A DNA stretch of 64,000 bases from Alphaproteobacteria bacterium (GTDB lineage: Bacteria; Pseudomonadota; Alphaproteobacteria; CALMVH01): contig CBDAQZ010000004.1 in the NCBI GenBank assembly GCA_965199335.1, forward strand, positions 128,666-192,665. The letters are read 5' to 3'. The translations under genes were made by a program, and so were the position numbers. This document shows, in pieces, positions 10,696-55,010 of this stretch (the stretch's first letter is position 1; the number at the start of each line of letters is the position of its first letter). The notes below the pieces were generated by a model. It worked only from the letters and a program-made list of their open reading frames with translations, did not search any database and had not been told where the DNA came from.

Positions 10696-12290
10696 GCCGC
10701 CCGCCTTTCCACAAGCTGGTCCAGCGCGCCGCGCATGCCCTCGATCACCGCGCCCCAGTCGCCGTAGCGTGCCTGCCTGAACAGCCGCGCCGAGGGATAC
10801 CAGGGCGACGTATCGCCGCTCATCAGCCAGCGCCAGTCAGGCACATGCGCCAGCATCAGCCACATCGGCGTACCCAGCGCGCCTGCCAGATGCATGACGG
10901 CGGTATCGACCCCGATCATGAGGTCCAAATTCTGCACTGCCGCCGCGGTTTCGGCGAAATCGTTCAGTTCCTCGTCAAGCACCGTCACGTTGTTGCCGGG
11001 GAAACGATAACCCGCGGCCGGTCCTTTCTGCAGCGAATAGAACGCGATGTCGTCGCGTTGCAGCAGGCCGTGCAGGGTCTCCGGCGGCAGCGAGCGTTCG
11101 AAATTCTTCAGGTGCAGCGGGTTGCCGCCCCAGACCAGGCCGACCCGGGGCCGACCCGCCGGATCGCGCAGACGCTCGGCCCAGCGCGACGACCGTTCAG
11201 GCGCGACGCCGAGATAGGGAACGTCCGCCGGTACGTTGTGGATAGTGGTGCCGAACAGGCGTGGCAGGCTGAACGTGCCGGTGTAGGCGGCGAAATGTAT
11301 GTCCGCGTACGCATCGGCATCGCTGCCCTGCGCCCGAACCAGGTGGATGGCGTCGTTCGCCAGCCCCTCCGAGAACAGCGCCCACAGCTCCGGCTTGACC
11401 TCGAACAGCACCTCGTGCCCCCGTTGCGCCAACAGGCGCAGATAGCGGCACAGCATGATCGCATCGCCATATCCCTGTTCACTGAGCACGAACAGCGGAC
11501 CGCCGAGTTCCTCCGGGCTTTCGCCCATCCATACGCGGCGCTCAAGAGCGGCCTTGCTGTATTTGGGATCTTTCCAGCGCCATTCGAATTCACACCAGCC
11601 TTCCTCGTACTGTCCGTTCAGCAGCAACGCGATGGCGAGGTCGTTGTGCCCTTCCGGCAGCATCGGGTTGAGCGACTGCGCGCGGCGATAGGATTCGATT
11701 GCCTCTTCGACCAGGCCGAGGCCGTGCAGCGAGTTGGCGTAGTTGAGATGGACGCCGGGCAGCTGGCGCAGGAATCCCCCGGGCAGCGGCGTGCCGTTCC
11801 AGTGCGCCAGGTCGCGCGGCATGCGCGGGTCGGGCAGCAGCGCGCGGCCCAGGTGATCGCGCGCCTCGGCATAGCGGCCCAGCCGGTTGAGCATCACGCC
11901 GAGATTGTTGGGCGCATGCTCGTTGCGCGGGTCGATCTCCGCCGCCTGCGTGAAGGCGTCGATCGCTTCCTCCAGCCGGTTCTGGTCGCTGAGTATATTG
12001 CCCATCGTGATCAGCACCTCGGCCGCCTTGGGATGATCGCCCAGGCGGCGCAGGGTCACGGACAGGTTCTTTTGGAAATCGGGCACGGCGGGTGACAGCG
12101 CGATGGCACGCCGGATACGCGCCACCGATTCCAGCAGATTGCCGACCTGCCCCGCCAGCACGCCGGTCAGGTGGACCACGTCCGCGTTCTGCGGGTTTTC
12201 CGCCTCCAGCGTGCGGTAGCGGTCCCAGGCCTCGTCGAACCGGCCCGCGGTGTGCAGATCCATCGCTTCCTTCAGGCGGGGGTCGATCAT
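10692..12290 (-). CDS. TPR-repeat protein with GT9-like domain, paralog 1 of 4 (first in operon)
   Basis: 532 aa; starts MIDPRLKEAMDLHTAGRFDEAWDRY; motif LFVLSEQGYGDAIMLCRYLRLLAQRGHEVLFE; C-terminal TAAAVQNLDLMIGVDTAVMHLAGALGTPMWLM. Confidence 0.8.
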   Translation of the reverse strand: MIDPRLKEAMDLHTAGRFDEAWDRYRTLEAENPQNADVVHLTGVLAGQVGNLLESVARIRRAIALSPAVPDFQKNLSVTLRRLGDHPKAAEVLITMGNILSDQNRLEEAIDAFTQAAEIDPRNEHAPNNLGVMLNRLGRYAEARDHLGRALLPDPRMPRDLAHWNGTPLPGGFLRQLPGVHLNYANSLHGLGLVEEAIESYRRAQSLNPMLPEGHNDLAIALLLNGQYEEGWCEFEWRWKDPKYSKAALERRVWMGESPEELGGPLFVLSEQGYGDAIMLCRYLRLLAQRGHEVLFEVKPELWALFSEGLANDAIHLVRAQGSDADAYADIHFAAYTGTFSLPRLFGTTIHNVPADVPYLGVAPERSSRWAERLRDPAGRPRVGLVWGGNPLHLKNFERSLPPETLHGLLQRDDIAFYSLQKGPAAGYRFPGNNVTVLDEELNDFAETAAAVQNLDLMIGVDTAVMHLAGALGTPMWLMLAHVPDWRWLMSGDTSPWYPSARLFRQARYGDWGAVIEGMRGALDQLVERRAA

Positions 12291-31573: not shown

Positions 31574-32140
31574 TTATTCCGCCGCCATCACGGTTGCGCC
31601 GTGGACTGACATTGCATGGATTATCTCATCGCAGAACGCCCCCAGATCGTCCGGCTTGCGACTGGTGATCAAATTTCCGTCGACCACAACCTCTTGATCG
31701 ACCCAGGTCGCGCCTGCGTTGCGAAGGTCGGTCTTGAGCGAGGGCCAGGAGGTCATGGTGCGACCGCGAACCATGTCGGCCTCGATCAAAGTCCAGGGAC
31801 CGTGGCATATCGCGGCCACCAGCTTTCCCGTCTGGTTGAAATATTCCACGAAATCGACCGCTTCCTTGTTCATGCGCAGGGAATCGGGGTTGGCAACGCC
31901 GCCCGGCAGTACCAGGCAGTCGTAATTCTGGGGATCGGCCTGGTCCAGTGTCAGGTCCACCATGACCATCTGGCCCTTCTCCTGGTGATCCATGCCCTGG
32001 ATCTGGCCGCCCCTGGGAGAAACGACCTCTACCTGAGCGCCCGCTTCGCGCAAGCGATTTAGCGGTTCGGTCAGCTCGACCTGTTCAAACCCGTCGGTTG
32101 CCAGAATGGCAACGCGCTTGCCGTATGTTTCGTCGGACAT
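31574..32140 (-). CDS. DJ-1/PfpI family protein (class I glutamine amidotransferase-like)
   Basis: 188 aa; VAAICHGPW nucleophile-elbow motif. Confidence 0.85.
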   Translation of the reverse strand: MSDETYGKRVAILATDGFEQVELTEPLNRLREAGAQVEVVSPRGGQIQGMDHQEKGQMVMVDLTLDQADPQNYDCLVLPGGVANPDSLRMNKEAVDFVEYFNQTGKLVAAICHGPWTLIEADMVRGRTMTSWPSLKTDLRNAGATWVDQEVVVDGNLITSRKPDDLGAFCDEIIHAMSVHGATVMAAE

Positions 32141-32211: not shown

Positions 32212-34551
32212 TTATTCCGCATTGCCGACCGTGGTAAAATCGACGCCGGCGGCCAGACGATCCGCAGCCGATTTCAATATGACGCTGACCTCCAGCCCCA
32301 GGCTCGGATGTACCGGAAAGCCGGGATCGACGGGCATTGCCGGCTTGTCCACGATGATATCCTCGCCCGAGGCGGAATAGGATGGGCGAACCAACCCTTC
32401 CAGCGCATCGTCCATCTCCCGGTCGGGGCTGGGCAGTTGCGCGGCCGGCACGACGACCGTTTCGGCCTCCATGGAGGGCATTTCGGGCATCGTCGCGATT
32501 TCGACCGGCGCCGAGCCGTCATCGTCCAGAGCAACGACGAAGTCCTCGTCCATGCTTTCGTCGCTCGCTTCCAGTTCCGGCTCCTCGGGGCGCATATAGG
32601 CGCACAGGGCGGCGACGGCCATCGATCCGCACTGGATCTGCTCCTGTCCCGACTTTTCCGCCAGGGAGAAACCATAGGCCAGAGCATTGAGTTCGTTCGA
32701 TTGCTCCGCCGGCGGCTCGACATCCAGCGCGCGCCAGTTCGGATCGCGCAGGCGCTTGACCAGCGTATTGATCATGCTGGCCATGGCGGGCGACATCGGC
32801 TCGGGCATCGAAACGCCCAGCAGCTTGTGCACGCGCATCGCCTTGACGCGCTTGGGGGCGGCATAGAACAGACGCCCGGCGATCACCTTCGACTGCCAGG
32901 TCATGTGAACTTCACCTTCCACCTGGTCGCGCAGGTCGGACCAGCCGGCCTTGTCGCGCACCGACAGGTTGGCATTGCGCGAATCGTAATAGTTCATCGA
33001 GAACAGATCGGAGGTCATGGCCATGCCGCTGCTTTCGGTGACCAGCGCCTTGCCGACCGTCTTTTCGAAGAAGTTCTGCGTATCGAGCGATTCCTCCAGC
33101 TTGCCGAAGATTTTCAGGTTACAGTTGGCGGTGATCGACCGCGCTTCCTCGCGCACGCGCAATTCCATGGACGGAATATCCTGGCTGGCGAAGATCAGGG
33201 AGAAGCCAAGACTTCTGGCCTGCGCCGCCATGACCGCCATGCCCTGCGTGGCGTAATAGCCAACCTCGTCGAACACCGTGATGAAAGGGGAGGACGATTT
33301 CGACAGCTTGTTATCGATGACGCCCGCCCAGTCGCCTTCGACGGCGGAGCCCAGCGTCGTACCCATCATGCCCTTGATCGAGGCAGTGACGATCTTGCCG
33401 AGGTTGGCGGCTTCGTCGGCCGATTTTTCCAGCGACGGGATCAGCACGACCAGGATGCGGCGGTTCAGCACCACGTCCTGCATCACGACATCGGCGATCG
33501 GCTTGCCGAAGATGTGCCAGTAGTCGCCCGACAGCGATTGCAGAGCACGGGTGAACTGCATCGACAGGAAGTTATGCTGCTGCGAAACCGTCGAGATATC
33601 GCGTGGCGGATCGTTGGGACCCGGGGGCGCCTCGTTGCCTTGATCGTCGAAGGCGGCGGGAATGTAACCCGGCAACGTTTCGAGATAGGTGGAACTGAGG
33701 GCGCTGCGGATATTCTCGGGGATCGTGACATCGCGCGACAGGCGGATGATCGAAGCCAGCGAGATACTTTCCAGGATGACCTTGACGTCCAGCTGGTGCC
33801 CCTGCTTTTCGCGGCGATGGACCAGTACGGGCATCAGCGCGCCCATCAGCGCGACGGCGCGGCCCTTCCACATGGCGTTCTCGCCCTTTGCCTCGTCCAT
33901 CAGACTGACCAGAAGGTTGGTAAGGTAGGACGACGAGCCGGTGGTGAAGGGGTTGAGCGTGTTACTGACAGCGCCCAGGTCGCTGTTGCCGGTCAGGTAG
34001 TTGAGCACGAACAGATCGTCGTCGCGGCCGAAGCGGCGGGCCAGCGCGTAGATCGACGCCCACAGATCGGTATCGGCCTTGCCGTCGATGTAGATGAATC
34101 CGGAGCCCCAGGCGAGCGCGTTGGAGACGATCGATTTGAGACCTTCGGTCTTACCCGAACCGGTGGTGCCCAGGAACAGGATATGGGTACCGGCATCCTT
34201 GCCGCTCAGCCACAACTCGTCCCCGCTTGGCTTTTCGTTGCCAAGAAACAGGATGCCCTTCGGTTTCTTGTCCTTCTCGTTCTGATCCTTTGCCTTGGCG
34301 AAGGCCGGCATCTTCAGCGGCAGGGTGTGCTTACGGCTGATGAACCAGAAGAAATAGAAAATGCCCGAGAACAGCAGCACGTCGGCGATACTCTCGCCGA
34401 AGTCGGAATAAAGCGAAAAACCACCGGCCATCACCAGCAGCGTCGGGGCTACGGTGGCGTCCTCCATGAACTCGCGCGCCTTGGCATAGGGCGTGCGCGT
34501 ATCGCGCATGAAGTCCTTTAAGTCGCGATGATATTTCTTCTCGATTACCAT
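32212..34551 (-). CDS. Type IV coupling protein-family ATPase resembling DotL/IcmO (TrbC of IncI plasmids)
   Basis: 779 aa; two N-terminal TM helices, then Walker A ILFLGTTGSGKTEG and a Walker B-like hydrophobic stretch ending in D/E (FITVFDEVG); long acidic C-terminal tail (EEPELEASDESMDEDFVVALDDDG), as in DotL; the family call is from memory of the DotL/TrbC architecture and is not verified. Confidence 0.5.
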   Translation of the reverse strand: MVIEKKYHRDLKDFMRDTRTPYAKAREFMEDATVAPTLLVMAGGFSLYSDFGESIADVLLFSGIFYFFWFISRKHTLPLKMPAFAKAKDQNEKDKKPKGILFLGNEKPSGDELWLSGKDAGTHILFLGTTGSGKTEGLKSIVSNALAWGSGFIYIDGKADTDLWASIYALARRFGRDDDLFVLNYLTGNSDLGAVSNTLNPFTTGSSSYLTNLLVSLMDEAKGENAMWKGRAVALMGALMPVLVHRREKQGHQLDVKVILESISLASIIRLSRDVTIPENIRSALSSTYLETLPGYIPAAFDDQGNEAPPGPNDPPRDISTVSQQHNFLSMQFTRALQSLSGDYWHIFGKPIADVVMQDVVLNRRILVVLIPSLEKSADEAANLGKIVTASIKGMMGTTLGSAVEGDWAGVIDNKLSKSSSPFITVFDEVGYYATQGMAVMAAQARSLGFSLIFASQDIPSMELRVREEARSITANCNLKIFGKLEESLDTQNFFEKTVGKALVTESSGMAMTSDLFSMNYYDSRNANLSVRDKAGWSDLRDQVEGEVHMTWQSKVIAGRLFYAAPKRVKAMRVHKLLGVSMPEPMSPAMASMINTLVKRLRDPNWRALDVEPPAEQSNELNALAYGFSLAEKSGQEQIQCGSMAVAALCAYMRPEEPELEASDESMDEDFVVALDDDGSAPVEIATMPEMPSMEAETVVVPAAQLPSPDREMDDALEGLVRPSYSASGEDIIVDKPAMPVDPGFPVHPSLGLEVSVILKSAADRLAAGVDFTTVGNAE

Positions 34552-34581
34552 TCCGTCTCCCCGGCCATACCTTGCAAGGCC

Positions 34582-35154
34582 TTAATGATAGAACGAATCC
34601 ACATCCACCGGCGCACCCGTCGGTACCGTGGCCGGCTTGGCCTGCTGTTGCCGCGCCGCCAACGCCGGCAGAACCGTCTTGGCAAGCGTACCGGGGACGT
34701 AGCTGCCCGGTGGTAGCTTGCTTGCGAAAGACGCTGGAACGCCAGCAGGAGAAGCCGCACCGGTCATGGAAGAGATTTCCCTGAGCAGGTGATTGGCTGC
34801 ATTCAGCTGGATAGTCTCTATGATCGCCAACAGCAGCACGACCACGATGGCCGTCCATTTGGCAATTTTCTTCCACGGCGCCTGGAAGGACAGCAGGGTG
34901 CGCGACAGGCTGGACAGGGCCTGTTCGGCCGCGTCGATCGAGGCAAAGGTCGCGATCGTCATCGGCGTAACACCGCCGTCATAACGAACCAGATCGAACT
35001 TGCCGTCAGCCTGCCTGAGTCCGAAGCCGCTGGAAACATCGCTCACCACCCAGCGCCACAGCACCGGAGGCGTCGCATCGGCAAACCAGGCGACCAGCAT
35101 CTTGCCCCGAATGGCAACTTTCGAACGCGGCAATTCCCTGTCGTATTCACTCAT
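34582..35154 (-). CDS. Hypothetical single-pass membrane protein (190 aa) between the DotM-like and DotL-like genes
   Basis: ORF with a central TM helix (WTAIVVVLLLAIIETIQL); Ala/Pro-rich C-terminus. Confidence 0.4.
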   Translation of the reverse strand: MSEYDRELPRSKVAIRGKMLVAWFADATPPVLWRWVVSDVSSGFGLRQADGKFDLVRYDGGVTPMTIATFASIDAAEQALSSLSRTLLSFQAPWKKIAKWTAIVVVLLLAIIETIQLNAANHLLREISSMTGAASPAGVPASFASKLPPGSYVPGTLAKTVLPALAARQQQAKPATVPTGAPVDVDSFYH

Positions 35155-35211
35155 ACTTGCAGCTCCATCGCAGTTCTTTCGCCTGCATTGATTAAAGTTG
35201 AACCAGAACGA

Positions 35212-36333
35212 TCATTCGGCAAGCCCTGGAAGTGAGCGGCTCAGACGGTGATCGTATTCGTTTAGCGACATGACCGCCTGCGTGACTTTCGGCGACAGAA
35301 GCGGCGTACCGGCGGCACGTTCGGCCATGTAGTGTGAAATCGCGCCCGCGGCCTCGGCGTGGAATGACTGGCGGCCGAGGTTGTTGAGCGGATACCACAG
35401 CGCGCGGTTGGCACCGCGCAGCCACAGGAATTGCGCCGGGGCCAGAACGCCGCCGCGATCGCGCGAATAGCCGAGCAGCCGCAGCATCGCGGTGGTCACG
35501 AACGCATGGTTCGCCGTAACCTTGGCAGCCTCGCCGCCCAGTTTCGGGTCCTTGACGATGCGATCGATCTCCTTGCGCAGCGTCGCGGTGGGACGCAGGG
35601 CCATGTCGCTTTTCGGATCGGCGCACAGCGCCAGCTCACCCAGCAGCTTGTCCGCTTCCTCGCGCTGGCGGGCGGCTTTGAGGGCAAACACCGCGAACAG
35701 CGCCTTGACATGGAACGGCAGGGCATCGGGTCCGCGCCATCTGGGCCCCAGCTGCTCGGCGAATGCCTGCGCGACAGCCACCTGGTCCAGCCCGTCCGGC
35801 CCGTGCGGAATGGAGTTGTATTTCAGCCACTCCTCGGGCGACAGAGCCTCGGCGAACAGCGGCAGTTCGGTCGGTGTCTCGCCATTGGGATCGCGGGCGT
35901 TATCGACAGCGGGGTTGAACTTTATGATCGGGGAGATCACCGGCCATATCTTGGCCTGCGCGGCAATCAGCTTGTCGAGGGAATAGGCCTTGCGGTAGCT
36001 GGATTTGGGCGCCGAAACCATGAGCAGATAGGCCATGGTCACCAGGATGATCATGATCGGCCAGCGCAGGAAATGACCGGCCAGCCGCGCGGCGTAGCGG
36101 ATATAGGGCCAGTCGATGTCGTAGTGCTTGGGATCGTGAAGTATGTCGCGAACGGCGGGAACGGCGGGATCGGATACGATGCGACTCAGCAGCCAGAACT
36201 CGCCGTAGGTGAAGATGCGGAAGAGTTCCGTGACCTGCTTGTGGAAAAAATGCCAGAACAGCCAGGCGAGAACTATAAACCCGGCCATATAGACCGCATA
36301 GGTCGTGTCGCGCGTTTCTATATTTCCGGCCAT
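35212..36333 (-). CDS. Inner-membrane protein resembling DotM/IcmP (TrbA of IncI plasmids), the partner of DotL-type coupling proteins
   Basis: 373 aa, close to the 376 aa of Legionella DotM; N-terminal TM helices then a large soluble domain; adjacent to the DotL-like gene in the same orientation. Confidence 0.4.
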   Translation of the reverse strand: MAGNIETRDTTYAVYMAGFIVLAWLFWHFFHKQVTELFRIFTYGEFWLLSRIVSDPAVPAVRDILHDPKHYDIDWPYIRYAARLAGHFLRWPIMIILVTMAYLLMVSAPKSSYRKAYSLDKLIAAQAKIWPVISPIIKFNPAVDNARDPNGETPTELPLFAEALSPEEWLKYNSIPHGPDGLDQVAVAQAFAEQLGPRWRGPDALPFHVKALFAVFALKAARQREEADKLLGELALCADPKSDMALRPTATLRKEIDRIVKDPKLGGEAAKVTANHAFVTTAMLRLLGYSRDRGGVLAPAQFLWLRGANRALWYPLNNLGRQSFHAEAAGAISHYMAERAAGTPLLSPKVTQAVMSLNEYDHRLSRSLPGLAE

Positions 36334-36440
36334 TAACCGTCATTCCCTGCAGTTGACTACATCACGCCTTGCACCGACACCGGCATTGAGCGATACAGTA
36401 TATCAGAAAAGCCGCAGTAACAAGCCGTACTAAGGCATCG

Positions 36441-36515
<75 letters not shown>

Positions 36516-36632: not shown

Positions 36633-37019
36633 ATGAAGAAAATTTTGCTGCCTGCGGTACTGTCCTGCCTTTGCCTCAGCGCCTGTTACGAGCCGCTTGA
36701 GTACTGGCAGCGGACCAGCGGACCTTCCACAGCCTATCTGACAGGCGACCAGTCGCAGTCGTTGCTTGAGAAGGACATCTCGCAGTGCACCTGCGGTACC
36801 GATACGCTGCGCAACATCGTCACCGACGATGAGCAGGCCAAGCAGTACCAGCATGGCTCCCTCGACGATCCGCAGCCGGGCGACCCGCGCGAATTCCGGG
36901 CCTGCATGGAAGCCAGGGGCTGGACGCGCGTCGACCCGTACTTTGCGCAGGGTCAGACCGAGGAACGGCTGGATCACTACCAGGCCGTCCCGAACCACCC
37001 GCTTTGCAACGTACAGTAA
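36633..37019 (+). CDS. Putative lipoprotein (128 aa)
   Basis: Signal peptide with lipobox LSAC; four Cys; no family recognised. Confidence 0.5.
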   Translation: MKKILLPAVLSCLCLSACYEPLEYWQRTSGPSTAYLTGDQSQSLLEKDISQCTCGTDTLRNIVTDDEQAKQYQHGSLDDPQPGDPREFRACMEARGWTRVDPYFAQGQTEERLDHYQAVPNHPLCNVQ

Positions 37020-44557: not shown

Positions 44558-45023
44558 GACTGTCTGCCTTCGTTTGACCTTACGTAAAGGTAAGCCTGTT
44601 TGAGACAAATGGCAAGGGTTGTTTGCAGGCTGCTGTATTGGACAAACACCGGCTTCGGGAATTCGGTTGAAAGAATCCCGGATAAGTTCTACAGTTCAGT
44701 ATTGGGATAAACGGAAGGCCTATCAATGAACCACGAACAAACGCCGGCAGCCCATTTCTGCCCCAACACCCCAGGCGTTATCGCCGCGCACGATCCCAGC
44801 GCTTACAGGCTGGTCGGCAGCACTCATGTAAAAGTCGAGGGTGCAACGGAAGCGCCAAAAGCGACGGCGCCCTATGTTGCCGTGGATTATGCGCCCATGG
44901 CATCCGTACCGGCTGGTGATCAAACAGCATGCACAAATCATCATCTCACGTAGATAACGCTATGGCTTTTTGCCATCTGTAACTCATCGGTTTCCGGGCT
45001 GAGCACATCTAAAAGCAGGGTCT

Positions 45024-46280
45024 TTATGGCTGTAGTTCTTGAATCACCGTATTCACGTGATCACAAGCAGATCTCATTCCACCATACCAAATTGCCAGCT
45101 TCCGATTAGGGTCCTTGGATTTCTCAAACTCGTTTTCTTGCTTGAGTTTCCCAACGGCATAAGGGATCGACTCTCCAAAAGCCGTCATGCTCGAAGGATT
45201 CGGACCAAACATATTTGTTATTCTTATTGCTGATGGTGACGACTCCAAAGGGTCACCGCTACCTACGGTAAGCTTGTTGTTGCACGCAAAGTCGATGCTG
45301 ACTACGGGGCGAGGACGATTCTGCTGGAATCGAGTGAATGCACTTCGTACATGCGTATCTACGAAGCTGAAACCAAGAACCAGTAAGGCATCAGCTTTTT
45401 CGACGAGATAATCCAGTCTTGAGTAGTAAGTTCGGAAGGGAACTTGTTGAAGGGCATATGGTTTGCCATACCCAGCAATGATTGTGGAATTAGGGAAAAT
45501 ATATCCTTCTGGTGTTTGAAAACTCATTCGCCCGATAGATTTGGGCGGCGTCCGTTCTAGAGAAGGGTTCCATGAAATAGTTCGTGGAAAATCTAAGTCA
45601 AAATAAACAGACCCATGTAAGTGTAGAAAGCTACTGAACTCCGTGTCTAATAAGAGCCGGCGGGGTACGAACTCGCCAGCCTCATTAAAGCCGGTTTCCA
45701 TATCAGAACACAAGTCGAAGAGGACATTATCGTAATTCGTCGTTATAACCGACACATCGAATTGCAATCTCACCTCTTCAATGAATTTTTTGAGCGCGGT
45801 TACATCACGGTCTAGCTTGCATTCTTGAAAAAATCGCCGAACCAGAAAATCAATTATCCAATCGGAAATAAGTATAAGTTTATTCCTATCTGGCTTACGT
45901 GAACCGTCTTTGATTTTCATTTCCGGTAATTCGGAGAGTGTAACCAAACTGCCCAAGCCATTGGTGAATATTCCGGCCGGAAACATACCGATAAGCTGAT
46001 ATAGCGTGCCTAATACATTCTCGAAATTGATGCCATCAAATGGCCTTGGATGATATGCTTCTATGTGCTTCGAAATACGATCACGCATCCAGTCATATAA
46101 ATTTCCATTTTCATGCGCGAATGGAAAAGCTTCTTTGGAATAGTCTGAAATCCAATTACCAACTGTCGTTGTTGACGGCATACCGAACGGTACCGTTGCA
46201 CCAGCTCCAGCTATTATAAGAAGCTTTTTTCTATCCATACTATGCTCAAACATCGAGGCGATCACCAGAGTGCCACGCAA
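45024..46280 (-). CDS. SIR2-family (SIR2_2-type) protein, candidate defence NADase
   Basis: 418 aa (404 if started at MDRKKLLII); LLIIAGAGATVPFGMPS, ITTNYDNVLFD, HLHGS and LLVLGFSFVDTHV match the defence-associated SIR2 domain; low-GC gene (about 40-45%) in a 62% GC genome. Confidence 0.65.
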   Translation of the reverse strand: MRGTLVIASMFEHSMDRKKLLIIAGAGATVPFGMPSTTTVGNWISDYSKEAFPFAHENGNLYDWMRDRISKHIEAYHPRPFDGINFENVLGTLYQLIGMFPAGIFTNGLGSLVTLSELPEMKIKDGSRKPDRNKLILISDWIIDFLVRRFFQECKLDRDVTALKKFIEEVRLQFDVSVITTNYDNVLFDLCSDMETGFNEAGEFVPRRLLLDTEFSSFLHLHGSVYFDLDFPRTISWNPSLERTPPKSIGRMSFQTPEGYIFPNSTIIAGYGKPYALQQVPFRTYYSRLDYLVEKADALLVLGFSFVDTHVRSAFTRFQQNRPRPVVSIDFACNNKLTVGSGDPLESSPSAIRITNMFGPNPSSMTAFGESIPYAVGKLKQENEFEKSKDPNRKLAIWYGGMRSACDHVNTVIQELQP

Positions 46281-46353
46281 TCAGCCGATGTTAAATAGAC
46301 TTTGCGCTAAGTCTCAATCTACAAGACGTGATTAGTGCATACTTATAATGACT

Positions 46354-46776
46354 CTATTCGGACCCGAAAGCGAACCCTGCGTTCTGCAGCTGCCTGATGC
46401 TGTTGCCGACGACCGCGCGCTGCAACTCATTCAACTGTGATTTGCCAGGATCATAAGCCACTTCAAGGGCTTGTTCCGTCTGCTTCCAGGTTGGTCCATC
46501 GACATATTGTGGACCCATGATACTCAACTGGGTCGCATCGTTGGCTATCTGATCGACCAGGGTATCATTTGGATTCGAATAACTTGCAGGATCAGGATTC
46601 TGGATGGCGGCAACAGTCTCTTGAATTTGAACCGCATCGCGTTTTGAGTCTGCGGCCAAGGTTTTCTTTGCGTTCTTCTGACCTGCCGATTCCCATGGTG
46701 CGGCTTCATATAGGGAAGCTGCACTAATAGCTAGAATTGTGGTCAGCAATATCTGTGAACTACGTGATTTGAACAT
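46354..46776 (-). CDS. Hypothetical secreted protein (140 aa), co-oriented immediately upstream of the SIR2-like gene
   Basis: N-terminal signal peptide (LLTTILAISAASLYEAAP); low GC; no family recognised. Confidence 0.5.
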   Translation of the reverse strand: MFKSRSSQILLTTILAISAASLYEAAPWESAGQKNAKKTLAADSKRDAVQIQETVAAIQNPDPASYSNPNDTLVDQIANDATQLSIMGPQYVDGPTWKQTEQALEVAYDPGKSQLNELQRAVVGNSIRQLQNAGFAFGSE

Positions 46777-46865
46777 GATTTTCCTCCCAAATTGGTTGAA
46801 AATATCACATCTTATTCTGCAATCAAATAAAAAGTTTTATAAAATGTTAATATTAAACATTTCCA

Positions 46866-48722
46866 TTACCCCACCAGCCCTTTCACCGCCAGGTCGCTGA
46901 GCCGCCGCGCAAAGGCCGGCGCGTCCAGAACCGCCTCGCCCTCGGCGATGCGGGCCTGGTCCAATAGCAGCCAGGCGAGGTCCTTGACCTCGTCCGGCGA
47001 GGCGGTAACCTTGCCTGCCAGCGCCGCGATCAGGCGGTGTTTCGGGTTGATCTCAAGCACGCGCTTCACCAACTGGTCGAACTGCTTGTGCGCCTTCAGC
47101 AGGCGTTCCAGGTGCATGTCGACATCGCCCTCGTTCGCGACCAGGCAGACCGCGCTGTCGGTCAGGCGGGTGGAGGCGCGCACGTCCTTGACCTCCGACG
47201 CCAGTGTTTCCTTCATCAGCGCGATCAGCGCCTCGACCGCCTCGGATGGCTTGGTCTCCGGCTCGGCGACATCGTCTGCAGCCTTGATCTTGTCAAGATC
47301 GTCGCCGCCGCGCGTGACCGACTTGAATTCCTTGTCCTTGAACGTGCCGACCGTGGCGGGCCAGAATTCGTCCACCGGATCGGTCAGCAGCAATACCTCG
47401 ACGCCGCGGGCGCGGAAGCCCTCCAGCTGCGGGCTCTGCAACAGCTTCTCCGGATTGTCGCCGGCGATGGTATAGATCGCATCCTGGCCTTCCTTCATGC
47501 GCGACACGTAGGAGTCGAGGCTGGTATAGCCCTCAACCGCCGTCGAGCGGAAACGCACCAGCTTCAGCAGGTCGTCGCGGAACTCGACATCCTCGTACAG
47601 GCCTTCCTTCAGCACGGCGCCGAAGTTTTCCCAGAACTTGGCGTAGTCCGCCTCGTCCTTGGCGCGCTTGGCCAGTTCCGACAGCACGCGCTTGGTCACG
47701 CCCTGGCGGATCTTGGCGATCACCGGGCTGACCTGCAGCATCTCGCGGCTGAGGTTGAGCGGCAAATCCTCGCTGTCAACGACGCCGCGGGTGAAGCGCA
47801 GCCAGGGCGGTATCAGCCCCTGCGCCGCCTCGGAGATGAAGACGCGGCGGACATACAGCTTGACCTCGTGCGCGCGCTGCGGGTCGAACAGGTTGAACGG
47901 CTTGCTGTCGGGTATGAACAGCAGCGCGGAGTAATCGATCACGCCCTCCGCCCGCCAGTGCATCGTCGCCCACGGCGCGTCGAACGCCTTGGAGGTGTGG
48001 TGATAGAATTCCTTGTACTGCTCCTCGGTGATCTCCGACTTGGCGCGCATCCACAGCGCCGACGCCGCGTTCAGCTTGTCGGGGTCGCCGGCCAGCTCGA
48101 TCGGGATCGCGACGTGGTCGGAGTATTTGCGCACGATCTGCTTCAGGCGCGGGGTTTCCAGGTACTCGTCCTCCCCCTCGCGCAAATGCAGGATGATCTC
48201 GACGCCGCGGCTTTCCTTTTCGGCCGGGCTGACAGTGAATTCGCCTCGCCCGTCCGACTCCCAGCGCCAGGCCTCGGCCTCGCCTGCCTTGCGGCTGAGC
48301 ACCGTGACCTTGTCGGCCACCATGTAGGCGGAATAGAAGCCGACGCCGAACTGGCCGATCAGCGCGCTATCCTTCTTGTCCTGCAACGCCTGGCTGAACG
48401 CCGCGGTGCCGGAACGCGCGATTGTGCCCAGGTTCTCGATCAGCTCGGCGCGGTCCATGCCGACGCCGTTGTCGCTGATGGTCAGCGTGCGCGCGTCCTT
48501 GTCGGCCGTGATGACGATCTTGAAATCCGTGCCGCCGGCATCGGCCAGTTCCGGCTTGGTCAGCGACAGGTAGCGCAGCTTGTCGCAGGCGTCGGAGGCG
48601 TTGGAAATCAACTCGCGCAGGAAGATTTCCTTCTCGCTGTACAGCGAATGCGCGACGATATCGAGCAGCCGGCTGACTTCGGCCTGGAAGGAAAGCTTTT
48701 CTGTCGTTGCCGTTTCGGTCAT
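46866..48722 (-). CDS. htpG: Molecular chaperone HtpG (Hsp90)
   Basis: ORF 46866..49664; true start MTETATTEKLSFQAEVSRLLDIVAHSLYSEKEIFLRELISNASDA (GHKL ATPase N-box) at M315. Confidence 0.95.
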   Translation of the reverse strand: MTETATTEKLSFQAEVSRLLDIVAHSLYSEKEIFLRELISNASDACDKLRYLSLTKPELADAGGTDFKIVITADKDARTLTISDNGVGMDRAELIENLGTIARSGTAAFSQALQDKKDSALIGQFGVGFYSAYMVADKVTVLSRKAGEAEAWRWESDGRGEFTVSPAEKESRGVEIILHLREGEDEYLETPRLKQIVRKYSDHVAIPIELAGDPDKLNAASALWMRAKSEITEEQYKEFYHHTSKAFDAPWATMHWRAEGVIDYSALLFIPDSKPFNLFDPQRAHEVKLYVRRVFISEAAQGLIPPWLRFTRGVVDSEDLPLNLSREMLQVSPVIAKIRQGVTKRVLSELAKRAKDEADYAKFWENFGAVLKEGLYEDVEFRDDLLKLVRFRSTAVEGYTSLDSYVSRMKEGQDAIYTIAGDNPEKLLQSPQLEGFRARGVEVLLLTDPVDEFWPATVGTFKDKEFKSVTRGGDDLDKIKAADDVAEPETKPSEAVEALIALMKETLASEVKDVRASTRLTDSAVCLVANEGDVDMHLERLLKAHKQFDQLVKRVLEINPKHRLIAALAGKVTASPDEVKDLAWLLLDQARIAEGEAVLDAPAFARRLSDLAVKGLVG

Positions 48723-48760
48723 TTCGCAAATCTCCAGCGCGTAAAATCCTATTGCGCATA

Positions 48761-48789
48761 GATGATGGCACATAACCGATTGCGCAAGA
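48761..48789 (-). promoter_or_regulatory. Possible sigma-32 (RpoH)-type heat-shock promoter for htpG (CTTGCG-N14-CCATCATCT on the minus strand)
   Basis: Resembles CTTGAA-N13-15-CCCCATNT about 40-70 nt upstream of the htpG start; weak match. Confidence 0.3.
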
Positions 48790-48806
48790 GGGCAGGATGA
48801 TATATA

Positions 48807-48821
48807 GAACATAACATGAAC
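48807..48821 (+). promoter_or_regulatory. Alphaproteobacterial-type LexA (SOS) box GAAC-N7-GAAC overlapping the dinB-like start codon
   Basis: taGAACataacatGAACga read directly; the second GAAC includes the ATG-AAC of the ORF start; the alphaproteobacterial LexA operator is the direct repeat GTTC-N7-GTTC (GAAC-N7-GAAC on the other strand). Confidence 0.5.
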
Positions 48822-50051
48822 GATACATTGGGCATCGTGGCCGGCCTGCGCTGGCTGGTGCTGGACCTCAACAGCTTCTTCGCCAGCTGCGAGCAGCAGG
48901 ACGATCCGGCCCTGCGCGGCAAGCCGGTCGTCGTAGTGCCGACCTCGAACGTAATGAGCACCTGCGCCATCGCCGCCAGCTACGAGGCCAAGACATTCGG
49001 CATCAAGACCGGCACGCTGATCCGCGAGGCGATGGCGCTGTGCCCCGATCTGATAACCATCGAGGCCAGCCACAGAAAATATGTCGAGTATCACCACGCG
49101 GTGCGCACGGCGATCGGGCAGTGCATCCCGATCGAGCATGTGATGTCGATCGACGAAGTCGCCTGTCGCCTCGATCGCATCCAGCAGGACCCGGCGGCGG
49201 CGCGGCAACTGGCGCTGGCGATCAAGGACAGCATCCGTAATACGGTAGGTGAATGCCTGACCAGTTCGATCGGGATCGCCAGCAACAAGTTCCTGGCCAA
49301 GATGGCCTCCAACATGCAGAAGCCGGACGGCCTGACGCTGCTGATGCCCGACAGCCTGCCGCAGGCGCTCCTGAAACTGGACCTGCGCGCCATCCCCGGA
49401 ATCGGCCGCAACATGGAGGCACGGCTGCACGATGCCGGCGTGCGCGACATGGCCACGCTGTGGAACGCCACGCCCGACCAGTGCCGCCGCATCTGGGGCG
49501 GGATCAACGGCGTGAAGTTCCATGCGCTGCTGCACGGCGTCGATTTGTCCGGCCCCAACAACCCGCGCCGCAGCATCGGCCATTCCAAGGTGCTGTCGCC
49601 GGAAGAACGCGGCAAGGCCGCGGCGACACCGGTGATCCGCCGCCTGCTGGTCAAGGCAGGGCAACGCCTGCGTGCCGACGGGCTATACTGCCGCCGGCTG
49701 ACGCTGGACGCGAAATGGGATTTCCACCAGGGTCATTGGGTAAAGGAACAGGTGTTCCTCGAAACCCAGGATACCGGCCTGCTGCTGCAGATGCTGAACC
49801 GGCTGTGGTCGCAGATGCCGGACAAGCGGCCATTGAAAGTCGGTATCACCCTGTCCGGTCTGGTGGAGGCGACCGCACACCAGCCTGACCTGTTCGATGC
49901 GCCGGTAGCGGAAGGCGTCCTGTCCCACGCCCTCGACAAGCTGAACAAACGCTTCGGCGCCAACACCGTCGTCTACGGCACCTGCACACAGAAGCTGGAG
50001 AGCAAGATCGCCTTCCAGCGCGTGCCGGATCTGGCGGAGTATGCGCGGTAA
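48816..50051 (+). CDS. Y-family translesion DNA polymerase (DinB/Pol IV-like)
   Basis: 411 aa; LVLDLNSFFASCEQ (catalytic Asp and FFA motif), SIDEVACRL (catalytic Asp-Glu); little-finger region in the C-terminus. Confidence 0.85.
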   Translation: MNDTLGIVAGLRWLVLDLNSFFASCEQQDDPALRGKPVVVVPTSNVMSTCAIAASYEAKTFGIKTGTLIREAMALCPDLITIEASHRKYVEYHHAVRTAIGQCIPIEHVMSIDEVACRLDRIQQDPAAARQLALAIKDSIRNTVGECLTSSIGIASNKFLAKMASNMQKPDGLTLLMPDSLPQALLKLDLRAIPGIGRNMEARLHDAGVRDMATLWNATPDQCRRIWGGINGVKFHALLHGVDLSGPNNPRRSIGHSKVLSPEERGKAAATPVIRRLLVKAGQRLRADGLYCRRLTLDAKWDFHQGHWVKEQVFLETQDTGLLLQMLNRLWSQMPDKRPLKVGITLSGLVEATAHQPDLFDAPVAEGVLSHALDKLNKRFGANTVVYGTCTQKLESKIAFQRVPDLAEYAR

Positions 50052-50685: not shown

Positions 50686-53109
50686 ATGCACACCCCTCCC
50701 CGCATCACCGCCGTCCTCGGGCCGACCAATACCGGCAAGACGCATTTCGCCATCGAGCGCATGCTGGGGCATCATTCGGGCATGATCGGGCTGCCGCTGC
50801 GCCTGCTGGCGCGCGAGGTCTACGACCGGGTGGTGGCGCAGAAGGGGGCGAAGATCGTCGCGCTGATCACGGGCGAGGAAAAGATCGTGCCCGCGCACGC
50901 GCGCTATTTCATCTGCACCGTCGAGGCGATGCCGCTCGAGCGGCCGGTGGACTGCCTGGTGATCGACGAGATCCAGCTGGCCAGCCATCCCGAGCGCGGC
51001 CATGTCTTCACCGACCGGCTGCTGCATGCGCGCGGCCTGGCGGAAACGATCTTCCTGGGCGCGGAAACGATGAAGCCGGTCATCGCGGCGCTGGTGCCGG
51101 GGGTGGAGATCGTCACCCGCCCGCGCCTGTCGAGCCTGACCTATAGCGGCTACAAGAAGCCGGCACGCCTGCCCGCCCGCTCAGCCATCGTCGCCTTCTC
51201 CGCCGCCGAGGTCTACCGCATCGCCGAATTCATCCGCCAGCATCGCGGCGGCACCGCCGTGGTGCTGGGCGCGCTGAGCCCGCGCACGCGCAACGCGCAG
51301 GTGGATTTGTTCGAGCGCGGCGAGGTCGACTACCTGGTCGCCACCGACGCCATCGGCATGGGCCTGAACCTGGACATCGCGCATGTCGCCTTCGCCCGCG
51401 ATTCCAAGTTCGACGGGCGCAACGGCAGGCGGCTATGGCCGGAGGAAGTCGCCCAGATCGCGGGCCGCGCCGGGCGGCACATGCGCGACGGCACGTTCGG
51501 CACCACCTTCGAATTGAAAGGCTTCACGCCGGAGCTGGTCGAGGCGATCGAGGAACACCGCTTCGACCCGGTGACGAAGCTGTACTGGCGCAACAGCAGC
51601 CTGGACTTCTCCAATCCGCGCATGCTGCTGGCCAGCCTGGAACGGCGGCCCGACCAGCGCGTGTTCGCGCAGATGCACGACGCCGACGACCACCGCGCGC
51701 TGAAGGCGCTGACCCAGCGGCTGGAGGCGGAAAGGAAAACACCGGGCCGGTCGCGCACCGCCCTGCTGTGGGAGGTCTGCCAGATCCCCGATTTCCGCAA
51801 GATCATGTCGGACGATCACATCACCCTGCTGGCCGGCCTCTTCGACCATCTTTCCGCGCGGCCCGGCATCGTGCCCGCCGAGTGGGTCGGGCGGGAGATC
51901 GCGCGGCTGGACAGCGGCCAGGGCACGATCGAGATGCTGACCACCGGCCTCGCCGCGATCCGCACCTGGACCTATGTCACCGCCAAGACCGGCTGGGTCG
52001 AGCATGGGGAGGAGTTGCACGCCAAGGCGCGCGCCACCGAAAACCGCATCTCCGACGCGCTGCATGCCGCGCTCAGCGAGCGCTTTGTCGACAAGCGCAG
52101 CGCCAGCCTGGCGCGCGCCACCTCGGCGAAACAGGACCTGCTGGCCGGCGTGCGCGGCAATGGCGAGGTTGTGGTTGAGGGCCATGTCATGGGCGCGCTG
52201 AAGGGCTTCCGCTTCGTCGTCGACGAAAGCGTAGCGCTGGGCGACCGCGAACTGGTGCTGAAGACCGCCAACCGCGCGCTGGCGCAGGAGATGCGGACGC
52301 GCATCGGCAGCCTGTCGGAGGTACCCGATACCGCCTTCGCGCTTGAACTGGACGGGTCGATCCTGTGGGACAACCAGCCCGTCGCGCGGCTGGCCCCGTC
52401 GGCGAAGCTGCTGGAACCCGCCATCCAGGTGCTGAAGACCGACCTGCTGGACCCGGCGCAGGAAACGCTGGTGGCCCAGCGCGTAGGGCTGTGGCTGCGC
52501 GCCGAAATCCGCCGCCGGTTGCAGACGCTGCTGGGGCTGATGAAGACACGCGACGATGCCGCCCTGGACCCGGAGCTGCGCGGCATCGCCTTCACCCTGC
52601 TGGAGAATTTCGGCGTCGTTCCCAGGGACCATGGCGACTATACCGCCGCCCAGTTGCAATGGCTGCAGAGCCGCGGCGTCACCCTGGGTACGCGCTACCT
52701 GTACATGAAGGGCTTGCTGAAGCCGGACGTGACCGGGTTCATGGCGTTGCTATGGAATGTGCAGCACGGCACCAAGCTGGCGCCCCCGAAACCGAACCGG
52801 GTGTCGGTGCCTGTTGCCAGCGAAGACCAAAACGATTTCCATGCCGCGCTTGGCTACCCGGTCCTAGCCGCCCGCGCGATCCGCATCGACCGGCTGGACG
52901 CCATGGCGGCGGAACTTGCCGAAGGCCGGGAGATCAAGGTCAAGCTGCTGGCGAAGCTGCTGACATGCACGCCGAGGCAGGCGGAGGATGTGATCGCGGC
53001 GTTATGCCGCAAACCGGTAAGGAAGACTCACGGCCATGGGTTCCATCACTCGCCGTTCGCCGGCTTGCGGGAAACCCACGGCTCTACCGGGGATGCAACC
53101 AGGGCTTAA
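50686..53109 (+). CDS. Superfamily-2 helicase, SUV3-like (mitochondrial Suv3-type ATP-dependent RNA helicase homolog common in alphaproteobacteria)
   Basis: 807 aa; Walker A AVLGPTNTGKTHFA, DEIQ (DExH) box, SAT-like and motif VI (QIAGRAGRHMRDG) regions; long C-terminal extension. Confidence 0.75.
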   Translation: MHTPPRITAVLGPTNTGKTHFAIERMLGHHSGMIGLPLRLLAREVYDRVVAQKGAKIVALITGEEKIVPAHARYFICTVEAMPLERPVDCLVIDEIQLASHPERGHVFTDRLLHARGLAETIFLGAETMKPVIAALVPGVEIVTRPRLSSLTYSGYKKPARLPARSAIVAFSAAEVYRIAEFIRQHRGGTAVVLGALSPRTRNAQVDLFERGEVDYLVATDAIGMGLNLDIAHVAFARDSKFDGRNGRRLWPEEVAQIAGRAGRHMRDGTFGTTFELKGFTPELVEAIEEHRFDPVTKLYWRNSSLDFSNPRMLLASLERRPDQRVFAQMHDADDHRALKALTQRLEAERKTPGRSRTALLWEVCQIPDFRKIMSDDHITLLAGLFDHLSARPGIVPAEWVGREIARLDSGQGTIEMLTTGLAAIRTWTYVTAKTGWVEHGEELHAKARATENRISDALHAALSERFVDKRSASLARATSAKQDLLAGVRGNGEVVVEGHVMGALKGFRFVVDESVALGDRELVLKTANRALAQEMRTRIGSLSEVPDTAFALELDGSILWDNQPVARLAPSAKLLEPAIQVLKTDLLDPAQETLVAQRVGLWLRAEIRRRLQTLLGLMKTRDDAALDPELRGIAFTLLENFGVVPRDHGDYTAAQLQWLQSRGVTLGTRYLYMKGLLKPDVTGFMALLWNVQHGTKLAPPKPNRVSVPVASEDQNDFHAALGYPVLAARAIRIDRLDAMAAELAEGREIKVKLLAKLLTCTPRQAEDVIAALCRKPVRKTHGHGFHHSPFAGLRETHGSTGDATRA

Positions 53110-53546
53110 AGGTAAACGCTGGCGTCTTTCATCGGGAAGCCGGCTATCAGCGGCGTGGCGCGTTGATTTTCAGTAACAATCCGTGCTGCTGGTCCAGGCG
53201 CCGGCTTAGATGGCGAATTCGGCACTGTCGCTAATGGAGCGACAGAAACTTGATAAGCTTCGCGCAAGTCGCTGACGATCTGAGCGTTATCACCCTTCTC
53301 GCCGTAATAGATGGCGATTGCAAGAATGCCAGGCGATTCCGTTGCCGGCATTTCAGGATGCTGAACGGCTTTCAAAATCAATTTTCCTGCCGCTTCCATA
53401 TACTGGCCGCGAACCGGATTTTCACAATCATCGTTGGCGCCGTGCATGAAGTCGATAAGGTGATAAGCGGCCACCAGCGGGTTTTTTTCGATCTTTGGAA
53501 GCGTTTCTGAAACCAATATCTTTATTGCCGTAGTATCATCGATCAT
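53106..53546 (-). CDS. Hypothetical protein (146 aa), lower GC
   Basis: ORF only; 4-nt overlap with the helicase stop. Confidence 0.4.
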   Translation of the reverse strand: MIDDTTAIKILVSETLPKIEKNPLVAAYHLIDFMHGANDDCENPVRGQYMEAAGKLILKAVQHPEMPATESPGILAIAIYYGEKGDNAQIVSDLREAYQVSVAPLATVPNSPSKPAPGPAARIVTENQRATPLIAGFPMKDASVYL

Positions 53547-53713
53547 AAATCTTCCTCTTAAAAAGATGCGGCACCCTATAGGGCAACTCTTTTTGCGTCA
53601 ATCGATTTTTACTGTTTCTTAGTCATTTGGCCAATTCGCCCGTTAACCGAACAACTTGCAAACTGGCGTGTTAGAGTCAGTTGGTTCCAACTTCATTATA
53701 CAAGGAGGTTTGC

Positions 53714-53920
53714 ATGGCGTTCGCCGAAAGACTTGAGTCGATGGGGCGTAAAAAGCATGATCTGGAACTGGCAATACACGAGCTGGAAAAACAGCCCCAA
53801 CCGGATGAACTGGCCATCAGACGAATGAAGCGGGAAAAACTGGCGCTGAAGGATCAGATCGCAGCCTTGCTCGATGAGCATGCGCATGTCGAGGAAGCAG
53901 CATTACAGGCAGCGGAATAG
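53714..53920 (+). CDS. DUF465 (YdcH-like) small coiled-coil protein
   Basis: ORF 53681..53920 with likely start MAFAERLESM; HELEKQPQPDELAIRRMKREKLALKDQIAAL fits the DUF465 pattern. Confidence 0.6.
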   Translation: MAFAERLESMGRKKHDLELAIHELEKQPQPDELAIRRMKREKLALKDQIAALLDEHAHVEEAALQAAE

Positions 53921-53928
53921 TTTAAACT

Positions 53929-53978
53929 GTCATTCCGAGCGCAGCGAAAACTTTCGATCGAGATATTTCGCTGCGCTC
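53929..53978 (+). terminator. Hairpin after the DUF465 gene (GTCATTCC-GAGCGCAGCGAAA ... TTTCGCTGCGCTC)
   Basis: 13-bp stem read directly; no clean T-run, so it may be a REP-like element rather than an intrinsic terminator. Confidence 0.4.
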
Positions 53979-54029
53979 AACATGATAATCCTTATCTTTT
54001 CTTGCTTCTGGCAAGACAGAAGAGATCTC

Positions 54030-55010
54030 TCAAGCTCCAACACGAACCACTTGGCTGGTCTTGGGAGCTGCTTGTTGAGCTATGAAAGGTTCAGCGGGCT
54101 GATTGCCAGTAACTTGCACGTTATCAAGAAAAAGAACACCCTCTCTGGTCACCCACGAGGTTCCTTTGTAACGATTTGCAGGATCCGTTTTTTGAACATC
54201 GGTGTGGAGTTTTTCGTAACAATGAAAAACACATTCGACGCCGAGCGTTTTTACTTCCGCAACGGCACTACGAAAATCATAGTCGTTTGTATATTCTGGA
54301 TCGAAGACAACAGATTTTTTACCGTCCATATCTGTCTGGGCAATGCCCGGAGCCATAAAATGGACCTTATGGGTTTCGGGCGTAACATGCTCTTTCAGCA
54401 TCTGCCGAACATTATGAGTTTCCGAAGGTCGGTAGTGCGAAAATGTAATTGTAGCAGGGTTATCGATAAAGGTGCCAAGGCAGCTGCGCAAAGTATCGGT
54501 TGCGACGCTCCTGCCTTTTTCGAGGGTTACCTGCTCGCCCATTTCTACAACGGCGTCAAAACGTTCAGCCAGTTCCTTCGTTATCGATGGTTTAGGCCTT
54601 GCGGCAATTGCCTCGCTAACGGTACTTTCAGACATAACGAAGCCGCCAGCTTGTAATATCTCCTTCAAATCCTGGACGAGTTTTATCACATCGGCGTCTT
54701 TAAAATCTTGTCTATAGGGATTGCTTGCACCATTAAACACAGGAAAAATATTCCCATTGGGAATTTCTTCCAGAAAGCCAGCAATATTTTGGCTGGATTG
54801 CCGGGAAACGAGCATCGTAACGTCGTTTTCGGTTTTGCCCTGAGAGGCAACCATCAGATAGACGGGATTTCCCAGAACTGTGTTTACTCGGCTTGACTCC
54901 GTGGGCTGTATTTCGAGAGTCCTGAATAGCTGGGCGTAGTAATCATGAATGCCGGGGCCGACCAACGGCTCGGTCGAATCCTTAAACGGACCCATGATCG
55001 TATCGGGCAA
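54030..55010 (-). CDS. Hypothetical protein (326 aa) in an AT-rich (about 45% GC) patch
   Basis: Long ORF with atypical composition; no family recognised. Confidence 0.45.
   Translation of the reverse strand: MPDTIMGPFKDSTEPLVGPGIHDYYAQLFRTLEIQPTESSRVNTVLGNPVYLMVASQGKTENDVTMLVSRQSSQNIAGFLEEIPNGNIFPVFNGASNPYRQDFKDADVIKLVQDLKEILQAGGFVMSESTVSEAIAARPKPSITKELAERFDAVVEMGEQVTLEKGRSVATDTLRSCLGTFIDNPATITFSHYRPSETHNVRQMLKEHVTPETHKVHFMAPGIAQTDMDGKKSVVFDPEYTNDYDFRSAVAEVKTLGVECVFHCYEKLHTDVQKTDPANRYKGTSWVTREGVLFLDNVQVTGNQPAEPFIAQQAAPKTSQVVRVGA

Follow-up and report, generated by a model that had tools for sequence, protein, structure and literature searches.

This study concerns a module of three co-oriented genes beside a tRNA-Thr gene, located in a 64,000-nucleotide stretch of alphaproteobacterial DNA (contig CBDAQZ010000004.1, positions 128,666 to 192,665; referred to as the window, by which the whole stretch is meant). 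The genes encode proteins of 373, 190 and 779 amino acids (aa). Judging from sequence comparison, the 779-aa and 373-aa proteins are almost certainly DotL (IcmO), a type IV coupling protein (T4CP) ATPase, and DotM (IcmP). We propose that the module serves as the operon for the coupling complex of a chromosomal type IVB secretion system (T4BSS) of the Dot/Icm type that is vertically inherited and dispersed, the rest of the system being encoded elsewhere, and we assign this reading a probability of roughly 0.72. On the evidence of relatives, the remaining components are likely to be encoded elsewhere in the window's own genome. The label of true orphan is probably wrong for this locus, because in relatives the family is embedded in Dot/Icm clusters and dotB lies far from dotL on contigs where the module looks isolated.

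A first-pass annotation had described the three genes, the tRNA-Thr gene and the membership of the two larger proteins in the DotM and DotL families. All three open reading frames (ORFs) were recovered exactly at the predicted positions, ARAGORN confirmed the tRNA-Thr, and the family assignments are borne out by profile and PDB searches. The 779-aa protein matched the Legionella IcmO (DotL) chain 6SZ9_A with an E-value of 1.5e-139 and 470 bits, residues 4-659 being aligned with residues 6-661 of the chain, a span that takes in the all-alpha and nucleotide-binding domains. Its best NCBIfam match was TrbC_conju (NF041447) at 348.4 bits, under the 800-bit equivalog cutoff of that model, and Pfam TraG-D_C was matched at 8e-8. 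The catalytic residues of DotL are invariant in sets of 15 and 12 relatives. The Walker A motif and the long acidic C-terminal tail of the original description were both recovered (Table 1). The tail could not be aligned with that of Legionella DotL, the alignment stopping at about residue 659, and carries conserved motifs of its own. Of the two N-terminal transmembrane (TM) helices that had been predicted, a Kyte-Doolittle scan supported one strong helix (residues 54-72), whereas the other, a weaker hydrophobic stretch at about residues 33-48, is below the scan threshold and was read by eye from the sequence.

With regard to the 373-aa protein, Pfam DotM_C was matched with an E-value of 1.5e-50 and 172.2 bits against a cutoff of 27, and the PDB chain 6SZ9_B, IcmP (DotM), was matched over residues 20-358 with an E-value of 8.7e-35. 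The NCBIfam model DotM_IcmP_IVB gave 207.2 bits over residues 15-359, which is narrowly under its cutoff of 230. Two strong N-terminal TM helices were found at residues 12-30 and 88-106 by the Kyte-Doolittle scale. As both proteins score under the NCBIfam equivalog cutoffs, they are, by this measure, divergent members of their families rather than strict equivalogs.

The evidence for a link to a T4BSS comes from relatives, whose loci were probed with the annotated Dot/Icm cluster of a Piscirickettsia plasmid, flanks of up to 10 kb on each side being searched. Full-length DotO (IcmB) is encoded directly upstream of dotM in loci L058, L063, L065, L079, L098-L100, L102 and L137. The order in L065 is dotG, dotF, a traQ-like gene, dotN, dotO, dotM, the small gene and dotL, and downstream of dotL follow a lytic transglycosylase gene, a dsbG-like gene, dotD, dotC and dotB. 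Two icmL genes, dotH and dotG precede dotO, dotM, the small gene and dotL in L162 (P0161, a contig of 889,751 bp), and L053 carries dotD-dotC-dotB-icmT upstream of tRNA-Thr and dotM. In addition, dotB is located about 10 kb away in L086, and an icmL gene was found in L124. These sub-operons parallel those of Legionella, namely dotDCB, icmJ-icmB (dotN-dotO) and icmP-icmO (dotM-dotL), the last two genes being adjacent in Legionella dot/icm region II. IcmS and IcmW were not detected near the module of any relative, and no relaxase (nikAB) or other tra gene was associated with the contiguous clusters. A 1010-aa "ATP-binding protein" at Bosea and Pseudomonas plasmid loci was rejected as a candidate DotO.

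Another Dot/Icm gene was present in the flank of 14 of the 159 loci, and the other 145 look isolated. Genomes that possess the remaining components usually keep the dotM-small gene-dotL unit apart from them, since dotB occurs on the same contigs as isolated-looking dotL genes, at distances of more than 10 kb. One DotB protein is encoded on a contig of 563,513 bp, and the isolated-looking locus L083 lies on a contig of exactly this length with the same "Alcanivorax sp." metagenome-assembled genome (MAG) label. A second DotB contig and that of the DotL match P0118 are both exactly 2,331,622 bp long, and a third DotB contig has the same length as that of L010, 23,430 bp. The DotB proteins in question are absent within 10 kb on either side of dotL in L083 and L010. 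Among the best 120 matches for each protein, identities were 72-84% for the alphaproteobacterial IcmB family and 82-96% for DotB, and some of these proteins are already named IcmB or DotB. Needham et al. (2022; PMC9418006) detected a pT4SSi system (VirB4/IcmB and more than six components) in seven marine Micavibrionales. The T4BSS is commonly regarded as characteristic of Legionellales and related Gammaproteobacteria, for example in a review of 2024 (PMC11338181).

The DotL-like family has more than 4,500 database relatives, the best 120 of which share at least 47% identity. Nearly all relatives are from uncultured Alphaproteobacteria, and several source records already say IcmO. A scan of one genome per species yielded a DotL relative in at least 416 genomes, many of them Micavibrio-like, including that of the cultured Micavibrio aeruginosavorus HCB189. 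The three-gene unit proposed in the first-pass annotation is real, conserved and normally found alone among housekeeping genes: ORF clustering over 87 loci recovered DotL in 86, the small protein in 79 and DotM in 78, and where DotM is missing the match mostly lies close to a contig end. Other recurrent neighbours in these loci are argS, gyrB-recF-dnaN-dnaA and an unknown protein of about 265 aa. A metagenome scan with a single protein gave no match, and a JGI metagenome scan with the clade alignment gave 68 loci, none of which is from the window's clade (best 56%).

Micavibrio-like DotL proteins share 47-53% identity with that of the window. In 49 Micavibrio-like loci, the protein of about 265 aa, which has an N-terminal hydrophobic segment, is encoded directly downstream of dotL (e.g. 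L039, 2847-3644), its gene lying roughly 2.3 kb beyond the start of dotL; the window lacks this gene. The module is within 10 kb of gyrB-recF-dnaN-dnaA, near the replication origin, in many Micavibrio-like genomes (43 loci, L003-L086; e.g. L003, 15108-22487). In L003 and L004, which represent the same place in one Rhodospirillaceae MAG recorded twice (2412-8531), the module is divergent beside a cluster of secretin, prepilin peptidase and pilin-like genes and has no recognisable small middle ORF. M. aeruginosavorus HCB189 (L070, NZ_CP195303.1) carries dotM, the small gene and dotL, and three DotB matches (P0250, P0251 and P0340) lie on contigs of 2.43-2.51 Mb, the size of Micavibrio chromosomes. 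A Dot/Icm-type system seems to have been overlooked in this predator.

The window groups with L007 (75%), L008 (77%) and L158, L001, L159, L161, L002 and L160 (57-73%) in a separate, rarer, high-GC clade. Eight contexts of this clade were compared, namely the window itself and, with flanks of at most 10 kb per side, L001, L002, L007 and L158-L161. They share a block in which dotM-small gene-dotL and a DJ-1/PfpI gene are present in all eight, a divergent gene for a lipoprotein of about 128 aa in seven (not L160) and tRNA-Thr in six, and their outer housekeeping flanks differ. The lipoprotein, located beyond the tRNA, shows 60-82% identity within the clade. The DJ-1/PfpI gene is directly downstream of dotL in L001, L002, L007, L008 and L158-L161, but not in other clades. 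Identity between the window and L007 is 75% for DotL and 62% for DotM, compared with 71% for DJ-1, 71% for OmpA, 62% for the pyridoxal phosphate (PLP) enzyme and 83% for SHC among the neighbours. Since the module is conserved at the level of housekeeping genes and its catalytic and tail motifs do not vary among members of the clade, its genes are, on this comparative evidence, functional and vertically inherited. A crude neighbour-joining tree of DotL places the clade among L009, L010/L011, the clade with adjacent dotO and the Micavibrio-like clade.

The gene between dotM and dotL encodes a protein without detectable relatives in known families, and a conserved middle gene of this kind appears to be new. 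As had been predicted, the 190-aa protein has a single TM helix (Kyte-Doolittle, residues 97-115; 34810-34866). This helix follows an N-terminal domain of about 95 aa with the motif A..PPVLWRW and precedes a low-complexity linker and a C-terminal G.P.D.D motif. In the family as a whole, the corresponding features are L..S.PDA..P.VWR at the N-terminus, one TM helix, a variable linker and G(V)P.sADDFL at the C-terminus. Because basic residues precede the TM helix, the protein is probably oriented N-in/C-out, with its N-terminal domain in the cytoplasm. No relative was found in Pfam, NCBIfam, PADLOC or the PDB, the last also searched with a family profile; PDB matches to TAL effectors were dismissed as summed repeat noise, at no more than 3.5 bits per stretch. 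A phmmer search against 1.84 billion representatives gave only 19 matches, and the protein appears from this to be fast evolving. An AlphaFold single-sequence model, apparently of this protein, had a pLDDT of 47.8. The small gene is present between dotM and dotL at the 79 loci counted above, which include the contiguous T4BSS loci L058, L063, L065, L079 and L162. As it is inherited with the DotM-DotL pair and is present in contiguous clusters, we consider its product a candidate additional, lineage-specific subunit of the coupling complex.

A persistent linkage of tRNA-Thr(UGU) to dotM also appears to be new. The tRNA-Thr(TGT) gene is divergent upstream of dotM in L009-L011 as well as in the six window-clade contexts, among which the window is counted, and the linkage was found in 38 of 52 further loci of the dispersed type (e.g. 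L017, L019 and L025). The tRNA gene lies at about 7.7-8.1 kb in the loci of the relatives (L001, L007, L009-L011, L017, L019, L025 and others), and the genes beyond it differ. Precisely at the loci with dotO immediately ahead of dotM, the tRNA gene is missing. It is unusual for a tRNA gene to keep its place beside a secretion operon when the encoded proteins have diverged by about 50%. The motif T[TC]TGnTAn[AT]nT occurs in the dotM orientation in 15 of 41 tRNA-dotM spacers, compared with 4 in reverse and 1.8 +/- 1.3 in shuffles. These figures are suggestive, and TGATATACT is possibly a promoter element of the operon, although the significance of the motif is uncertain because the spacer sequences are related. 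A generic promoter and terminator scan gave nothing at 36397-36405 and was uninformative, and no CtrA box (TTAA-N7-TTAA) was found in the 41 tRNA-dotM intergenic regions.

Several observations weigh against the proposed link to a T4BSS. No Dot/Icm gene besides dotM and dotL is present in any of the eight window-clade contexts, and none of the 120 nearest IcmB and DotB matches listed is on the window's contig of 1,037,687 bp. Both coupling proteins score under their equivalog cutoffs. There is a small chance that the agreement of the 23,430-bp contigs is coincidental, and for M. aeruginosavorus a paper of 2011 describing its genome stated that there was no evidence of a type IV secretion system (T4SS) (PMC3189940). 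The isolation of the module in its clade, the clade-specific block of lipoprotein, tRNA-Thr, dotM, small gene, dotL and DJ-1 genes and the strong constraint on the proteins would also be expected of a true orphan, in which the clade lost the channel and kept the three genes for another job, such as T4SS-independent handling of DNA or protein, possibly with the DJ-1/PfpI protein. A pair exapted in this manner was one of three options in the first-pass annotation, and we consider it unlikely: isolation is normal even in lineages with dotB or dotO elsewhere, the clade is nested among T4BSS-bearing lineages, and its DotL proteins retain the tail motifs common to those embedded in T4BSS clusters. 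We know of no described function for a complex of the DotL/DotM type that would be independent of a channel. The more specific form of this alternative, in which the high-GC clade, with hopanoid and beta-oxidation genes near the module, lost the channel and exapted a stand-alone coupling complex at the inner membrane, is slightly less probable still.

Other partners or origins for the module fare worse. A non-IVB machine encoded elsewhere, such as a VirB-type type IVA secretion system or an apparatus resembling a type IV pilus or type II secretion system, might be suggested by the secretin and prepilin peptidase cluster of L003 and L004; but this adjacency is confined to two copies of one place, with divergent genes, and the clustered forms of the module always have Dot/Icm genes as partners. 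DotM, as in the Legionella complex, is specific to IVB coupling complexes, and such a partner is very improbable. The first-pass annotation had also considered a deep remnant of an I-type conjugative element. The adjoining tRNA gene, which could mark an integration site for an IncI-type element, the gene order reminiscent of trbA-trbB-trbC and the TrbC_conju model as best NCBIfam match would fit such a decayed remnant. This origin is nonetheless largely refuted and scarcely credible. Plasmid-borne T4CPs, including those of alphaproteobacterial megaplasmids and Piscirickettsia plasmids, share at most 44% identity with the window's DotL and none covers the tail, and the TrbC score is far from its cutoff. 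The window contains no integrase, relaxase or repeats and is genome-like in composition; the tRNA-dotM linkage is ancient, vertical synteny extending over hundreds of species with different outer flanks; and the module is as conserved as its housekeeping neighbours. A component of MADS-type anti-phage defence, suggested by a match of the PADLOC mad8 model to DotL residues 101-549 (7e-41, 139 bits), has a negligible probability and is already refuted by the much stronger and longer match to Legionella DotL, by the adjacent dotM and by the lack of any MADS match for DotM or the small protein and of other MADS genes, methyltransferase or restriction partners nearby. We read the mad8 match as a reflection of shared T4CP ancestry; defence-annotation pipelines may mislabel T4BSS coupling proteins as mad8. 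Of the three options originally offered, a partner of a T4SS encoded elsewhere is therefore the best supported, and the coupling-complex operon of a dispersed Dot/Icm-type system is the reading that we retain.

The module resembles several known systems without being identical to any of them. Both window proteins are homologous over their full length to the DotL(IcmO)-DotM(IcmP) type IV coupling complex (T4CC) of Legionella pneumophila (6SZ9, 7OVB), with which they share the adjacency of dotM followed by dotL, the N-terminal anchor, the Walker A and B motifs, the DotM_C domain and a long C-terminal extension of DotL. In contrast to Legionella, an extra gene for a small single-pass protein, for which no Legionella counterpart was detected, lies between dotM and dotL, the host is alphaproteobacterial and the operon stands alone next to tRNA-Thr. 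In the Piscirickettsia salmonis cluster (L089, NZ_CP039048.1), DotL and DotM share 42% and 28% identity with those of the window and a small ORF also lies between them; however, the order is inverted (dotL, small ORF, dotM), the genes are contiguous with a whole system, and a profile comparison showed no relationship between this small ORF and the small protein of the window's family (hhalign probability 0.2%). The suggested parallel to TrbA-TrbB-TrbC of the IncI1 plasmid R64 holds for gene order, a TrbA/DotM-like and a TrbC/DotL-like protein flanking a small gene, but it does not extend to the proteins: the TrbC score is far under its cutoff, and the middle protein belongs to no recognised family and contains no cysteine, so that it is not of the same type as R64 TrbB, which we take to be a disulfide isomerase. 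The window also differs from R64 in the absence of relaxase or nik genes. A published precedent is the pT4SSi of Micavibrionales, with IcmB and IcmO annotated in alphaproteobacterial MAGs (PMC9418006), with which the DotL family and the three-gene unit are shared; in that source the finding occupies a single sentence of an automated survey, which describes no dispersed architecture, small gene or tRNA linkage.

Table 1. Coordinates of the module, its motifs and the adjoining features in the window.
Feature	Position	Strand	Remarks
dotM/icmP homologue, 373 aa	35212-36333	minus	ORF exactly as predicted
DotM_C cytoplasmic domain	35260-35772	minus	residues 188-358; Pfam PF23127
Small single-pass membrane protein gene, 190 aa	34582-35154	minus	ORF exactly as predicted
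dotL/icmO homologue, type IV coupling-protein ATPase, 779 aa	32212-34551	minus	ORF exactly as predicted
Walker A GTTGSGKT	34147-34170	minus	DotL residues 128-135; invariant in 15 relatives
Walker B ITVFDE	33265-33282	minus	DotL residues 424-429; invariant in 15 relatives
Acidic C-terminal tail of DotL, 125 residues	32215-32589	minus	29 D/E vs 5 K/R
LPSPD motif, DotL tail	32422-32436	minus	conserved in relatives
Terminal helix HPSLGLEVSVILKSAADRLAAGV, DotL tail	32242-32310	minus	conserved in relatives
tRNA-Thr (anticodon TGT), divergent from dotM	36441-36515	plus	ARAGORN
Candidate extended -10 element TGATATACT	36397-36405	minus	follows a T-run; lies 63 nt ahead of the dotM ATG
DJ-1/PfpI family gene	31574-32140	minus	Pfam DJ-1_PfpI 9.5e-60; co-oriented, 71 bp downstream of dotL

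Within the trio, dotM is separated from the small gene by 57 bp and the small gene from dotL by 30 bp; the co-oriented dotM lies 660 bp upstream of dotL, and the small gene is the sole ORF between them. Whether the DJ-1/PfpI gene is a member of the operon is uncertain. The window extends 28-32 kb on either side of the module and represents core chromosome, with gpsA, carA, dnaG-rpoD, metG, hopanoid synthesis genes, OmpA, a Na+/H+ exchanger, the PLP enzyme, beta-oxidation genes, htpG and trcR. The first-pass annotation had noted housekeeping flanks, a genome-like GC content and no other T4SS or relaxase gene for more than 25 kb on each side, and these statements were all upheld. GC content is 0.60-0.62 in the module and 0.62-0.65 in most of the window. 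Besides dotM and dotL, no T4SS gene, relaxase or integrase was found across the 64 kb in Pfam scans of 40 other ORFs and a tblastn search of the whole stretch with 26 Dot/Icm probe proteins.

Some further features of the window were recorded. The 128-aa predicted lipoprotein beyond the tRNA (36633-37019, plus strand) has a signal peptide ending in LSAC and no Pfam family. A low-GC island at 44600-46800 (0.46-0.51 compared with about 0.63) holds a gene for a 418-aa SIR2_2-domain protein (45024-46280), which matches PADLOC SIR2 models at up to 4e-13, and a 140-aa ORF without a family; these two probably represent a horizontally acquired defence gene pair. A second low-GC island at 53100-54700 (about 0.49) contains ORFs at 53106-53546 (minus) and 53874-54656 (plus), for which no Pfam or PADLOC family was found. 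The longest HtpG ORF (46866-49664) encodes 932 aa, with the HATPase and HSP90 domains beginning near residue 346; the true start codon is probably far downstream, or else the protein has an unusual N-terminal extension. At 2962-12290 lie genes for several large proteins in which TPR segments are fused to methyltransferase or glycosyltransferase-like domains. TPR-GT41 and TPR-methyltransferase genes are also found near the module in L005 (12847-16435), where flagellin genes adjoin, and in L006 (3070-5715), which is probably a coincidence involving alphaproteobacterial flagellin-modification genes.

Given the homology to the Legionella T4CC, DotL would sit in the inner membrane as the ATPase that accepts substrates and powers their transfer, and DotM would be its membrane partner, whose cytoplasmic domain docks substrates. 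The C-terminal extension of Legionella DotL binds the adaptors DotN, IcmS/W and LvgA. The acidic tail of the window's DotL, with its LPSPD motif and terminal helix, may likewise recruit adaptors, and a DotN is encoded in relatives. The small N-in single-pass protein could be an extra subunit of this complex. Substrates would then be passed to a channel powered by DotO and DotB and composed of DotC, DotD, DotF, DotG, DotH, DotA, IcmL and others, which would be produced from operons elsewhere.

These results have consequences for the annotation of secretion systems and for the biology of the group. As the system is split into small operons, annotation by neighbourhood misses the T4BSS, and isolated T4CP-like genes should be judged at the level of the whole genome before being called orphans. 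If, on the other hand, the window's clade has truly lost the channel, this would be the first natural case known to us in which DotL and DotM are retained alone. The product of the middle gene, a small membrane protein, is a candidate for a new component of the coupling complex. More broadly, the module belongs to a large, little-described alphaproteobacterial branch of Dot/Icm systems, represented in at least 416 species-level genomes, including those of Micavibrio-like bacteria, a group known from the predator M. aeruginosavorus. Lineages of this branch probably inject proteins into prey or hosts.

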